Of a stretch of DNA of 64,000 nt, positions 47,741-64,000 are shown piece after piece. A program made the translations under genes and the position numbers. This DNA comes from Mustelus asterias (taxonomy: Eukaryota), in the NCBI RefSeq assembly GCF_964213995.1, contig NW_027590121.1, positions 806,001-870,000 on the forward strand, given 5' to 3'. The notes under the pieces were generated by a model. That model saw only the letters and a list, made by a program, of their open reading frames with translations, was not told where the DNA came from and searched no databases. How positions within the stretch are numbered: the first letter of the stretch is position 1; each line of letters starts with the position of its first letter.

Positions 47741-49922
47741 TTGCAGACCTACCTCAGTTGATCTTTCTCTACACCCTAGCTATGACTGTATCATGACATT
47801 CTGCACTCTCTCCTTCCCAATGTACAGTATGCTTTGTCTGTATAGCGCACAAGAAACAATATTTTTCACTGTATACTAATACATGTGACAATAATAAATC
47901 AAACAGACCCCACAGAGAAACTAACTTTATAACAATCAGGATAGAATTAAACACACTGGTATGTTGGGATGCCCTGTGGTTGTGAAAGGCTCTGTAGAAA
48001 TGTAAGTTTATAAATTGAAGATTTCTGTTCTCTGATCTTGTTATCTGGAACTGAATTGATTTCAGCCACCCCCAACTTGCCATTTATTAAATTCACTTTG
48101 GTTCAGACAAGACTTTAACCAATTAAGACAAAGGCAGAATTCTCTGGATAGTAAATTTAAAAAGTTTATTCAATGAAAAAGGTTCACTGAACCACTTTAA
48201 GACATTGGCTTTTATAACTTGATGTGGGTGATCAGTCTGGAAGGTTAACCCTCTCTGGCTCCTTCTTTGACAGGAATTTCCTTAAAACTCAGCCTCGGGA
48301 CTCTTCAGTATTTGGTTCACAGGGAAGACCTTTGGAACCTCTACTTTTATCCCCCTACATCAGAGTTGGGCCTGTTTAACATGCCAATTGGTCAATTTGA
48401 TGAGATTAATTCAATTGAATCCCCAATATTTACACCACCGTTTCCCTTCATCTTAGTCAGGAATACAACATAATTGTTTCAGACTATCCCTTTACCCGAT
48501 TCCATACAATCCCTTGTTCATACAGTTTCAAATATTGAAGAGTTTGAAGGTCCCTCTCGCCAGTACATTTATCTTCATTGCACATTCTTTACATACACAG
48601 CAATAAACTTTTACATTTTTACAGTAAATAAAACCCAGCCTTTTACTATAACTACTGATTCATTAATTGTAACTTAATACAATCATCTGTTACTGACTGG
48701 TAGCTAATTAATACAGGATTCTTTAATTCATTTGGTTAATACAAGATTCACTGGTTCAAAAAGACACACGATGGAAGACAATAGGTTTCTTTCTTATTCA
48801 CCTTGATCAGACTGAACAATCGACCTTATTCTTGAGCCAGATTTGATGGAATATAATGTCCTGTATCTTATCAAAATGACAGAAGAAATTCTTAGTTTAA
48901 ACAATTTCTGCTGGTTATGCAGTTTCCACAAGCATTTGGGTGAATACAGCATTCATTTTAAAAATAAAGCTTCATTCACATGTCAGAGTTTAAGATTGTT
49001 TCCTTGACCTTGTTACTTAGAATGTTCAAGGAACAATTCAGCACAGTAACAGGCACTTGGGCCCACCGAGCCTGTGCCAATAGAGCTTCAATCCCTCTGT
49101 TCACCTCCTGTCTGTCTATCAAGATACACCTTGAACATTGCTAAAGTGCCTGCTTCCACCCGCTTCACAGGCAGTGCATTCCAGGCACCCAGCACCTCTA
49201 CAGAGTCATAGAGGTTAACAGCATGGAAACAGGCCCTTTGGCTCAACTTGTCCATGCCACCCCTTTTTTTAAATGACTAAGCGAGTCCGAATTGCCCGCA
49301 TTTAGCCCATATCCCTCAATAGCAATCTTACTCGGAACTGTCTAAATGTTTATCAAAAGACAAAATTGTACCCGCCTCTACTACTACCTCTGGCAGCTTG
49401 TTTCAGACACTCGCCACCCTTTGTGTGAAAAAATTGCCCCTCTGGACCCTTTTGTATCTCTCCCCTCTCACCTTAAACCTATGGCCTCTAGTTTTAGACT
49501 TCCCTACCTTTGGGAATAGATATTGGCTATCTAGCTGATCTATACCCCTCATTATTTTATAGACTTCTATAGGATCACCCGTAAGCCTCCTATGCTCCAG
49601 AGAAAAAAGTCCCAGTCTATCCAGCCTCTCCTTATAACTCAAACCATCAAGTCCTGGTAGCATCCTAATAAATCTTTTCTGCATTCTTTCCAGCTTAGTA
49701 ATATCCTTTCTATAATAGGGTGACCAGAACTGTATACGGTATTACAAGTGTGGCCTTAACAATGTCTTGTGCAACTTCAACAAGACGTCCCAACTCCTGT
49801 ATTCAATGTTCTGACCAATGAAACCAAGCATGCCGAATGCCTTCTTCACCGCTCTGTCCATCTGTGACTCCACTTTCAATGTATACTGGTATACATTGTA
49901 AGACTGTATTCAATGTAATACT

Positions 49923-50004
49923 GGTAGCGTGGCTGAGCGGTCTAAAGCACTAGATTTAAGCTTCAGTCTTTCCGGAGGCATAGGTTCAAATCCCACTACT
50001 ACCA
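49923..50004 (+). pseudogene. tRNA-Leu pseudogene (Leu-TAG-like body, anticodon reads TAA)
   Basis: 82 nt GGTAGCGTGG..CTACCA; many transitions versus the vertebrate Leu-TAG/AAG consensus. Confidence 0.85.
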
Positions 50005-50022
50005 GAATTGATGTCTGTTTAA

Positions 50023-50093
50023 GCATTGGTGGTTCAGTGGTAGAATTCTCGCCTGCCACGCGGGAGGCCCGGGTTCTATTCCCGGCAAATGCA
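50023..50093 (+). tRNA. tRNA-Gly(GCC), probably non-functional copy
   Basis: Matches the vertebrate Gly-GCC sequence as I recall it except B-box GTTCT and one acceptor-stem mismatch; T5 terminator at 50104. Confidence 0.8.
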
Positions 50094-53044
50094 AAGCCCC
50101 TTCTTTTTGAAGGGCCTGTTTCCTGTGCTGTACTATAATGAGCTATGAACATGTACATCCTAGAAATCTTTGTTCTATAACTCTCCCCGATGCCTACCAT
50201 TAACTGGTTCAATCAACCAAAATGCATCACCTCGCACTTATCTAAATTAAACTCCATCTGCCATTCGTTAGCCCACTGGCTCAATTGATCAAGAACCCAT
50301 TGCAATCCGAGCTAACCTTCTTCACTATCCACAACGTCACCCACCTTGGTGTCATCTGCAAACTTACTAATCATGCCTCCTAAATTCTCATCCAAATCAT
50401 TAATATAAATGACAAATAACAGTGGACGCAGCACCGATCCCTGAGGCACACCACTGGTCACAGGCCTCCAGTTTGAAAAACAACCACCCACAATCACCCT
50501 CTGTCTTCTGTCATCAAGCAATTTTGTATCCATTTGGCTGCCTCACCCTGGCTCCTGTGAGATTTAATCTTATGCAACAACCTACCATGTGGTACCTTGT
50601 CAAAGGCCTTGCTAAAGTCCATGTAGACAACATCAACTGCACTGCCCTCATCTACCTTCTTGGTTACCCCTTCAAAAAACTCAATCAAATTTGTGAGATA
50701 TGATTTTCCACTCACAAAGCCATGCTGACTGTCCCTAATCAGTCCTTGCCTCTCTAAATGCCTGTACATCCTGTCTCTCAGAATACCTTCGACCAGCGTA
50801 CCCACTACAGATGTGAGGCTCACCAGCCTGTAGTTCCCAGGCTTTTCTCTGCAGCCCTTTCTAAACAAAGGCACAACATTTGCCACCCTCCAATCTTCAG
50901 GCACCTCACCTGTGGCTGTCAATTCAAATATCTCTGCGAGGGGACTCGCAATTTCCTTCCTAGCCTCCCGCAACATCCTGGGACACACTTCATCAGGTCC
51001 TGGGGATTTATCTACCTTGATGCGCTTTAAAACTTCGAGCACATCCTTCACTGTTATATGCACACTCCTCAAGACATCACTATTTATTTTCCCAAGTTCC
51101 CCAACATCCATGCCTTAACAGTAATTACTGATGAGAAATATTCATTTAGGATCTCACACATCTCTTGTGGATCTGCACGTAGATGACTTTGTTGATCCTT
51201 AAAAGGCCCTACTCTCTATACTCTGCATTTGTAGAATCTCTGGATTCTCCTTTGCCTTATCTGCCAAAGCAATCTCATGTCTCCTTTTTGCCCTCCTGAT
51301 TTCTCTTAACTCTACTCCTACACCCTGTATACTCTTCAAGGGATCCGCTTGATCCCAGCTGCCTATGCATGCCATGTGCCTACTTCTTCTTCTTGACCAG
51401 GGCCTCAATATCCCAAGTCATCCAGGGTTCCCTACTTCTACTAGCCTTGCCCTTCACTCTAAGAGGAATGTGCTTATCCTGAACACTGGTTAACACACTT
51501 TTGAAAGTCTCCCACTGACCAGACGCCCGTTTGCCTTCCCACAGACTCCCCCAATTAACTTTTGAAAGTTCCTGCCTGATACCATCAAAATTGGCCTTGC
51601 CCCAATTTAAAATTTTAACCTTTGGGCCAGACCTATCATTCTCCATAGCTATCTTAAAACTAATAGAATTATGGTCACTGGTCCCAAAGTGATCCCTCAC
51701 TAACACTTCTGTCACCTGCCCTTCCTTATTTCCCAAGAGGAGGTCAAGTTTTGCCCCTCTCTAGTCGGGCCATCCACATACTGAATGAGAAATTCCTCCT
51801 GAATACACTCAACAAATTTCTCTCCATCCAAACCTCTAATACTATGGCTGTCCCAGTCAATGTTGGGAAAGTTAAAATCCCCTACTATTACCACCCTATT
51901 TTTTTGGAGCTATCTGTCATCTCCTTACATATTTGCTCCTCAATTTCCCACCGACTATTTGGAGGCCTATAGTACAACCCTATCAAAGTGACTTCCCCTT
52001 CTTATTACTCAATTCTACCCATACAGACTCAGTGGGTGAACCCTCGGATATATCCCCTCTCAGTACTGCTGTGGTGTTTTCCCTCATCAAAAGTGCAGCT
52101 CCCCCTCCTCTCTCACCTCCTGTTCTATCTTTCCTATAGCATCTGTACCCTGAAACATTGAGCTGCCAGTCCTGTCCCTCCCTCAGCCATGTTTCAGTAA
52201 TAGCTATAATATCCCAGTCCCATGTACCCCTCCATGCCCTGAGTTCATCTGCCTTGCCTGCCAGGCCTCTTGCATTGAAATAAGTGCACTTTAATCTGGA
52301 CCTCCCTTTCTCTCTGCTCTGCTTTTGACTGACCTGTCTAGTACTAGAATTATTGACACTGTCTTTACTATTTAATGTGCTCTCTTTAACTTCTGTCCTC
52401 AATCTTCTCTTCTGTCTTCCTATTGCTTTGGGTCCCACCACCCCCTCCCCGCCCACCCCACCCCGCCAAACTAGTTTAAACCCCCCCGACTCGCTCTCAC
52501 AAATCTCTCCGTCAGGATATTAGTCCCCCTCCAGTTCAGGTGTAACCCATCCCTCTTGAACAGGTCATCCCTTCCCCAGAAGAGATCCCAATGATCCACA
52601 AATCTAAATCCCTGCCCACCTGCACCAGCTCTCAAGCCACATATTCATCTGCCTCATCTTCCTGTTCCTACTCTCACTAACACGTGGCACCGGCAGTAGT
52701 CCAGAAATTACCATCTTCGAGGTCCTGCACTTTAGTCTGCTGCCTAACTCTCTAAATTCACTCTTCAGGACCTCATCCCTTTTCACCATGTATGTGAAAA
52801 CTTTCCCCACATGTTTCCCCAAACCTCATCACCTCTCACCTTGTGCCCTCTTGTAGTCGACCCTTCTCCCCTGGGGAAAAGCCTCTGACAATCCACCCTA
52901 CATTTGCTTCTCATAGTTTTGTAGTTTCTCATAGTTTCTCATAGCATCCGTCTTTCCAGTGAAAACAATCTGAACTTGTCCAACCTCTTCTTGTACCTTA
53001 AATCCTCCAGACCAGCAACATACCCTTTGACCCTCAGGAAAGGC

Positions 53045-63850: not shown

Positions 63851-63920
63851 ACTCCGCCCCAGTCTCAGCTTATCTGGAACCCTCATCCATTCTATTGTGA
63901 CGTCACACTCACTCTCCATT

Positions 63921-64000
63921 GAACAAAGAACAAAGAACAGTACAGCACAGGAAACAGGCCCTTCGGCCCTCCAAGCCTGTGCCGCCCCTTGGTCCAACTA
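63921..64000 (-). mobile_element. HER1/CR1 3' end
   Basis: (aacaaag)n tail followed by acagcacaggaaacaggcccttcgg. Confidence 0.8.

Follow-up and report, generated by a model that had tools for sequence, protein, structure and literature searches.

Introduction

Chimeras between small RNAs transcribed by RNA polymerase III (Pol III) and long interspersed elements (LINEs) are known in particular for the U6 RNA. In human, 180 U6 loci and 21 tRNA loci are chimeric with the LINE L1 (PMC13174262), and U6-L2, U6-Mon-1 (platypus) and U6-AnolisSINE2 (anole) are chimeras of stringent LINEs, with target-site duplications (TSDs) of 1–9 bp (PMC4476161). Template jumping has been documented for the R2 element, as have junctions of the ‘extra template’ and ‘snap-back’ kinds (PMC11371274, PMC11204384). 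Retropseudogenes of human precursor tRNAs (pre-tRNAs) were described by Schmitz et al. (2004; as cited in PMC4476161), and for the SINEU 5′ extensions a template switch has been proposed as the source of new heads of short interspersed elements (SINEs; PMC4494074). Two old questions, how tRNA heads come to be fused to LINE tails in the founding of SINEs and whether such fusions arise by template switching or by ligation, have been argued mostly from U6. For R2, end-to-end jumps between templates were reportedly described by Bibillo and Eickbush in 2004.

Here an insert of two tRNA copies and a CR1 tail, lying within a decayed LINE of Mustelus asterias, is analysed. It was found in a 64,000-nt stretch of DNA (assembly GCF_964213995.1, contig NW_027590121.1, positions 806,001–870,000), referred to as the window. 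The insert arose in a single event from separate precursors, joined at their RNA ends and in sense order, and the event belongs to a large genome-wide class that an earlier reading of the letters alone (the sequence-only reading) had missed. Numbers preceded by L and C are our handles for loci and contigs.

Results

Anatomy of the insert

The insert comprises 255 nt and splits the LINE; a 41-nt leader is followed by tRNA-Leu, an 18-nt spacer, tRNA-Gly, a T5 run and a 26-nt CR1 tail (Table 1). This arrangement of two tRNAs and a LINE tail within a LINE had been proposed in the sequence-only reading and was confirmed by Rfam, by ARAGORN and by the exact reverse complementarity of 50109–50134 to 63939–63964. 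The spacer, the terminator and the 26-mer all stood as read, and the leader, given there as 43 nt, had to be shortened by two. ARAGORN and Rfam find two tRNAs and no others in the window, Leu(TAA) and Gly(GCC); the A and B boxes of the former are recognisable by reading.

Fifteen loci with the left flank were fetched, four of them with the insert and eleven empty, and in all eleven empty loci (94–97% identical to the host LINE) the right-flank sequence continues directly. At the target, four of the eleven carry the AAT form, with a single AATG, and seven carry AAG. Because insert-free paralogs run through the site with a single AATG, the LINE flanks are contiguous and the 4-bp TSD, previously suggested as a possibility, is real.

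In both tRNA copies, similarity to the source gene ends in the terminator T run, that is, at the natural RNA 3′ end. Of 16 spacer nt, 14 agree with the native Leu trailers of L035 and L037, and in these loci the T run continues into native flank. The tRNA-Gly copy with its trailer is 96.5% identical (83/86 nt) to genes of 1.8-kb arrays; this similarity stops at the terminator, beyond which the array genes enter unrelated flank. The donor-type tail forms a long stem-loop when folded (z=-3.19), and the inserted part of it sets in at the first base of the loop. The inserted tail family differs from the host LINE’s own tail, and the same 26-mer terminates two other CR1 tails within 758 kb of fetched loci. 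A special link to the tail at 63939 was considered and rejected, the 26-mer marking a common tail family.

The leader contains a 10-bp perfect inverted repeat (49877–49898), a 13-nt copy of LINE flank 49797–49809 and two 9-nt direct repeats. The 13-nt copy originates 80 nt upstream, and a match that good occurs in 5 of 4911 random windows; the 10-bp inverted repeat was met in one of 1278 tiled windows, probably the tile holding the insert site itself.

Table 1. Positions of the insert, its parts and related elements in the window
Feature	Position	Strand	Remarks
TSD, left copy (AATG)	49878..49881	+	single AATG at empty site in L064, L065, L071, L072
5′-junction filler (leader), 41 nt	49882..49922	+	patchwork of locally templated pieces
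tRNA-Leu, probable copy of decayed gene (TAG family, now TAA)	49923..50004	+	Rfam 37.3 bits; ARAGORN 49922-50005
Spacer: tRNA-Leu 3′ trailer cut within T run, plus 2 nt (leader remnant or untemplated)	50005..50022	+	18 nt
tRNA-Gly(GCC) copy	50023..50093	+	Rfam 58.1 bits; no CCA; one B-box substitution
tRNA-Gly 3′ trailer ending in T5 (Pol III terminator)	50094..50108	+	T5 at 50104-50108
CR1 3′ tail, 26 nt plus 2 nt	50109..50136	+	from terminal hairpin loop onward, 3′ arm only
TSD, right copy (AATG)	50137..50140	+	same empty-paralog comparison
Host LINE, decayed (remnants of reverse transcriptase and APE-type endonuclease)	49200..52519	-	outer limits approximate; interrupted 49881/50137
Separate donor-type CR1 tail, complete hairpin	63920..64000	-	not necessarily the donor

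One event, later duplicated

The whole insert has four matches in the genome, all at one insertion site within collinear 10-kb blocks of about 95–99% identity. Since they have the same insertion site and collinear flanks, the four copies are segmental duplicates of a single event; the closest may be an allelic contig. No independent insertion with the same internal junctions was found among them. For the locus copy a dead end, with no further spread, is predicted, because T5 would halt Pol III ahead of the tail and the tail is half a hairpin. With T5 so placed and the 5′ arm missing, no transcript of the copy would be expected to reach an intact LINE-recognition tail. The suggestion of a SINE caught at birth fits the anatomy, but not the predicted fate of this copy; taken alone, the locus is a commonplace dead-end chimera of a type already known.

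Source genes of the two copies

The tRNA-Gly(GCC) genes are found in 1.8-kb tandem arrays, two to each unit and with no Leu gene (L005–L030; C2058 and C1:82.9–83.1 Mb). Sequence upstream of the array genes is unlike the insert spacer, and the similarity consists of the gene and its 15-nt trailer. The tRNA-Leu copy differs at 14 positions from the intact gene L043, and seven of these changes are common to L035, its nearest relative, which has native flanks. As the spacer matches native Leu trailers and L035 has 7/14 of the same changes, the Leu template was probably the transcript of a decayed Leu gene. The shared changes also led to rejection of G-to-A hypermutation as the main cause of the Leu differences. 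Among the other Leu-like loci examined (26 of 36 matches), native gene flanks are present at 15 and a SINE follows at 11. A decayed tRNA-Leu gene family with common flanks of 1.4–1.8 kb was seen on small contigs (L035, L036, L037, L048, L052 and L057); one of its genes apparently still yielded transcript.

Genome-wide, the Leu-3′/Gly-5′ pattern returned the four duplicates only and no source pair with the same spacer, and a B-box-then-Leu pattern returned one match, itself within a chimera; these were exact patterns run on one assembly, so that a missing or diverged source is possible.

A genome-wide class of pre-tRNA chimeras

A pattern of the Gly 3′ end and trailer, blind to downstream sequence, gave 32 matches in the 3.68-Gb genome, all of which were examined. 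They run into a SINE head (26), into a second tRNA followed by a SINE (two) or into a 5′-truncated CR1 (four), and neither a stand-alone copy nor a gene flank was found among the 32 dispersed copies. L188 is a duplicate of L182; the other sibling junctions are unlike one another and, because they differ, the sibling chimeras are of independent origin. The genome holds 115,353 exact SINE heads, which gives a probability of 0.0005 that one lies in sense within 30 nt. Conversely, no tRNA was found upstream of 23 unselected SINE heads (30 fetched; seven from one tandem cluster excluded). The labels SINE and CR1 are given here from reading of tRNA-like heads and tails and from Pfam domains. No gene is among the 32 retrocopies, and their trailer variant is not that of the array Gly genes; the copies may record older array sequence.

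A generic B-box-to-SINE-head pattern gave 138 matches, and 30 tRNAs were found among the 100 listed, with the isotypes Gly, Glu, Leu, Arg, Ser, Ala and Lys. Twenty-five of the 30 exceed the Rfam cut-off and the remainder were called by relaxed ARAGORN or by reading; the other 70 listed matches are not tRNA, 27 having been examined in their loci and 43 judged from the matched string. None of the tRNA copies found with this pattern carries a CCA end. As a strand control with the same B box, the antisense pattern, which would miss 5′ halves, gave no tRNA among 94 matches (reading of matched strings) as against 18 in sense among 100 listed. A further pattern yielded tRNA-plus-tail chimeras at 2 of 12 matches, the other ten (L260–L265, L267–L270) having SINE heads before the tail. 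Most of those ten are very short CR1 tails inserted within SINEs, and tail-only insertions are common. With one search pattern, 8 of 17 matches were SINEs nested in antisense SINEs and were excluded.

Altogether 77 distinct pre-tRNA chimeras were found. Of about 24 SINE-headed Gly chimeras, the generic pattern picks up just one, and dividing some 41 expected tRNA matches by this 1-in-24 sensitivity gives a rough genome total of ~10^3 loci, with a lower bound near 200; this corresponds to about one SINE insertion in every 1,000. For 9 of 50 chimeras, a single site within a host repeat could be demonstrated.

Two members carry one tRNA and a complete CR1 hairpin, namely L153 (Gly, T3; C1:75.25 Mb), where a 12-nt TSD partly overlaps the tRNA start, and L266 (Glu, T4; C16:39.26 Mb). 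They are better proto-SINE candidates than the window locus, as their short T runs could allow read-through; each was seen once. Tandem expansion of SINE heads or bodies after insertion was also observed (L170, L182/L188, L158; C1:1.3477–1.3492 Mb).

The U6 3′ motif was matched 40 times, by 13 genes and 27 dispersed copies (L219–L258). The dispersed copies precede full SINE heads (14), truncated SINEs (five), CR1 fragments (five) or unassigned sequence (three); three of the 27 are full length and most are 5′-truncated. A U6 gene cluster lies at C13:66.08–66.12 Mb. Because one trailer variant of one tRNA equals the U6 chimera count, pre-tRNAs likely dominate over U6 as passengers, the reverse of the situation in human.

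Chains of two or three tRNAs

More than one tRNA is present in 9 of the 77 chimeras, in eight different combinations, with Gly-Leu occurring twice. The window locus, Leu-Gly-CR1, is the only chain that does not end in a SINE. The other two-membered chains are Gly-Leu (L038, at a single site in a host repeat, and L169, in which the second tRNA is partly deleted and was called by reading), Gln-Leu (L047), Asn-Glu (L107), Gly-Glu (L145), Gly-Val (L177) and a deleted Leu followed by Val (L271); the longest is Leu-Arg-Lys (L125, likewise at a single site in a host repeat). Isotypes of decayed chain copies were assigned by reading. When the four chimeras found via a chain or a distal tRNA are excluded, a further tRNA is present in 5 of 73.

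RNA signatures in the copies

The 26 full-length Gly copies retain the source leader at positions -1 to -3 in 16, 15 and 16 cases, respectively, and further out in at most seven. At the other end, the junction T runs of 30 Gly copies are 1–6 nt long with a mode of 3, and two are trimmed. Introns are retained in four Arg copies (L106, L127, L132 and L146); L106 (C2:164.46 Mb) and L127 (C7:105.78 Mb) are tRNA-Arg(TCG) with differing inserts of ~17–19 nt after the anticodon, apparently introns. In vertebrates, tRNA introns usually occur in Arg-TCT, Ile-TAT, Leu-CAA and Tyr-GTA. The ends at start site and terminator, together with the strict sense orientation, argue for RNA templates and against DNA capture.

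All four deeply truncated Gly copies start at positions 56–58, A58 being position 56, and no A58 mismatch is present in the 26 full-length copies. 1-methyladenosine at this site (m1A58) stalls reverse transcriptases (RTs). The modification is placed on precursor tRNAs (preprint 10.64898/2026.05.17.725798).

Setting of the insertion

The insert is surrounded by a cluster of 84-nt zinc-finger repeats; at least 12 arrays with this period, on both strands, occupy window positions 2760–61834, and three other contigs carry duplicates of the region around the insert. Within the host LINE, Pfam identifies RVT_1 (E=1.8e-12) at 50497–51114 and Exo_endo_phos (E=3.5e-7) at 51986–52519. From its tail and domains, we take this element to be a CR1.

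Discussion

How the chimeras were made

The insert was probably generated by a CR1-group RT that jumped end to end, from the 5′ end of its template onto the oligo-U 3′ ends of separate nascent pre-tRNAs. Synthesis would have been primed on a CR1 (or, in other chimeras, a SINE) tail; on reaching the template 5′ end the RT would have jumped to the oligo-U end of a pre-tRNA-Gly and, in a second jump, to a pre-tRNA-Leu transcribed from a decayed gene. Snap-back or repair synthesis may then have produced the 41-nt filler and closed the 5′ junction, and segmental duplication of the zinc-finger cluster would later have given the four copies. The RT likely cannot start without its own 3′ tail, so that pre-tRNAs would enter the genome only as 5′ passengers. 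The sequence-only reading, which proposed a LINE-made chimera of unprocessed tRNA and LINE tail, was right as to one event and wrong as to a single dicistronic template.

Several points weigh against jumping. In the window locus the tail sets in right at the loop of the hairpin and could base-pair with the Gly trailer (-11.3 kcal/mol), which would also fit cleavage and splinted ligation, although this is one case with a fold z of -2.06. Jumping and ligation are not fully separable in genomic sequence, and the RNA end chemistry is assumed from general knowledge of Pol III. Most flanks of the class are unique, and about five chimeras that have repeats on both sides were not joined across the two sides. 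The TSD excess in 49 chimeras is weak, with a mean of 4.9 against 4.4 in shuffled pairs, which is expected given that stringent-LINE TSDs measure 1–9 bp (PMC4476161). Finally, the A58 pattern is post hoc with n=4, the T-arm could equally stop an RT, and L081, L114, L127 and L143 are clipped at other positions.

The best-surviving alternative is that the RNAs were ligated first, by RtcB as for U6/L1 or by a ligase of the 3′-OH/5′-phosphate type, and the fused RNA copied in one pass; we regard this as unlikely, yet as the one rival to be reckoned with. RNA ligases of the second type do exist. Ligation is the demonstrated route for human U6/L1 (PMC6789731), it would suit the loop start and trailer pairing of the window locus, and U6 is captured here too, 24 of the 27 dispersed copies preceding a SINE or CR1. 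Trailer–partner pairing as a general rule was dropped, many trailers being AT-rich. Against ligation, most partners are SINEs attached at their first base or a few bases from it and tRNAs that still have their leader, so that a 5′-triphosphate is expected, and many junctions carry 1–2 extra bases. RtcB requires a cyclic phosphate and a 5′-OH, and gave full-length products in 0/26 cases with a 5′-triphosphate and in 4/43 with a 3′-OH (PMC6789731), and pre-tRNA tails end in 3′-OH (PMC5737608). Since 3′-OH and 5′-triphosphate ends are expected for pre-tRNAs and intact SINE RNAs, RtcB is disfavoured.

A history in which SINEs or LINE tails were later inserted at the T runs of tRNA genes or stand-alone pre-tRNA retrocopies already in place is very improbable. 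The weak TSD statistics would allow such a sequence of events, and T runs could be favoured targets; however, 0/32 copies stand alone, source upstream flank does not extend beyond about 3 nt, unselected SINE heads have no obvious T run or tRNA upstream, and whole chains, all in sense, occupy one host-repeat site (the window locus, L038 and L125). Slightly less probable still is a single switch onto a dicistronic precursor from tightly linked Leu and Gly genes, as the sequence-only reading had supposed. The 18-nt spacing with merely T3 between the tRNAs would suit it, and an assembly may miss arrays; yet no such pair was found, the Leu-Gly pattern occurs in the four duplicates only, the spacer is the Leu trailer, and nine chains show eight combinations, one of which, Gly-Leu, has the two tRNAs in reverse. 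An undescribed dimeric tRNA SINE family, also put forward at the outset, can practically be dismissed, for despite the head-plus-LINE-tail anatomy and four genomic copies, these share one insertion site and 10-kb flanks, the terminator precedes the tail, and siblings differ in junctions and partners.

End-to-end jumping may be set in a broader proposal, to which we give an even chance: serial germline jumps by a CR1-group RT, in which ~1/1,000 SINE insertions gains a pre-tRNA and ~7% of those another, would have left ~1,000 fossil pre-tRNAs and a supply of proto-SINEs (L153, L266) with no need of RNA ligation. If so, the roughly hundredfold higher rate of second pickup would point to copying beside active tRNA genes, and the fossil pre-tRNAs would record start sites, terminators, introns and m1A58 stops.

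Significance and comparison with known systems

The class offers a large set of natural cases whose partners are predicted to have no ends that RtcB could join, so that the two routes can be tested against each other. In it the proposed birth step of tRNA SINEs is seen to occur repeatedly, and the copies suggest why most products die, the terminator being kept and the tail clipped. They are also a record of precursor ends and of older variants of tRNA gene trailers. In annotation, they will inflate tRNA gene counts and mimic ‘dicistronic’ tRNAs.

As in U6-L2, U6-Mon-1 and U6-AnolisSINE2, the U tail of a Pol III RNA is joined in sense to a short LINE fragment or SINE and no copy stands alone; the U6 copies found here match the platypus pattern (PMC4476161). 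Unlike the U6-L2 class, the passengers here are pre-tRNAs of many isotypes, mostly full length, apparently outnumbering U6 and forming chains of two to three. The driver is of the CR1 group, for which PMC4476161 gives one uncertain case, from turkey.

With human U6/L1 (PMC6789731, PMC13174262) the chimeras share a 5′ small RNA, a 3′ LINE, an oligo-U junction and origin in a single event; they differ in that the RtcB route of that system needs a cyclic phosphate and a 5′-OH, whereas 3′-OH and 5′-triphosphate are expected here, and in the predominance of SINE partners here, U6/Alu being described as very rare in human. Human tRNA/L1 chimeras (n=21; PMC13174262) likewise have tRNA co-inserted with a LINE, but are mostly half-length and antisense, from twin priming, whereas those found here are full-length precursors, all in sense; a twin-priming origin from tRNA halves was rejected at the window locus, where both tRNAs are full length and in sense.

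R2 PRINT junctions (PMC11371274, PMC11204384) resemble the present ones in that a non-coding RNA is copied after the main template, and their self-primed filler resembles the 41-nt leader; they are engineered, as described there, with U6 almost always the extra template and a single jump. Like the human pre-tRNA retropseudogenes and the SINEU extensions, the chimeras indicate that nuclear precursor RNAs reach the LINE machinery, but neither, as cited, has chains of pre-tRNAs fused to SINE or CR1 ends. No account of pre-tRNA–SINE or chained pre-tRNA chimeras was found in the openly accessible literature, although the tables of PMC4476161 and PMC13174262 could hold cases. Overall, what is new in this class relative to these systems is the use of pre-tRNAs as the main passengers, the joining of SINEs at their first bases, the chains of up to three tRNAs and a likely modification stop.

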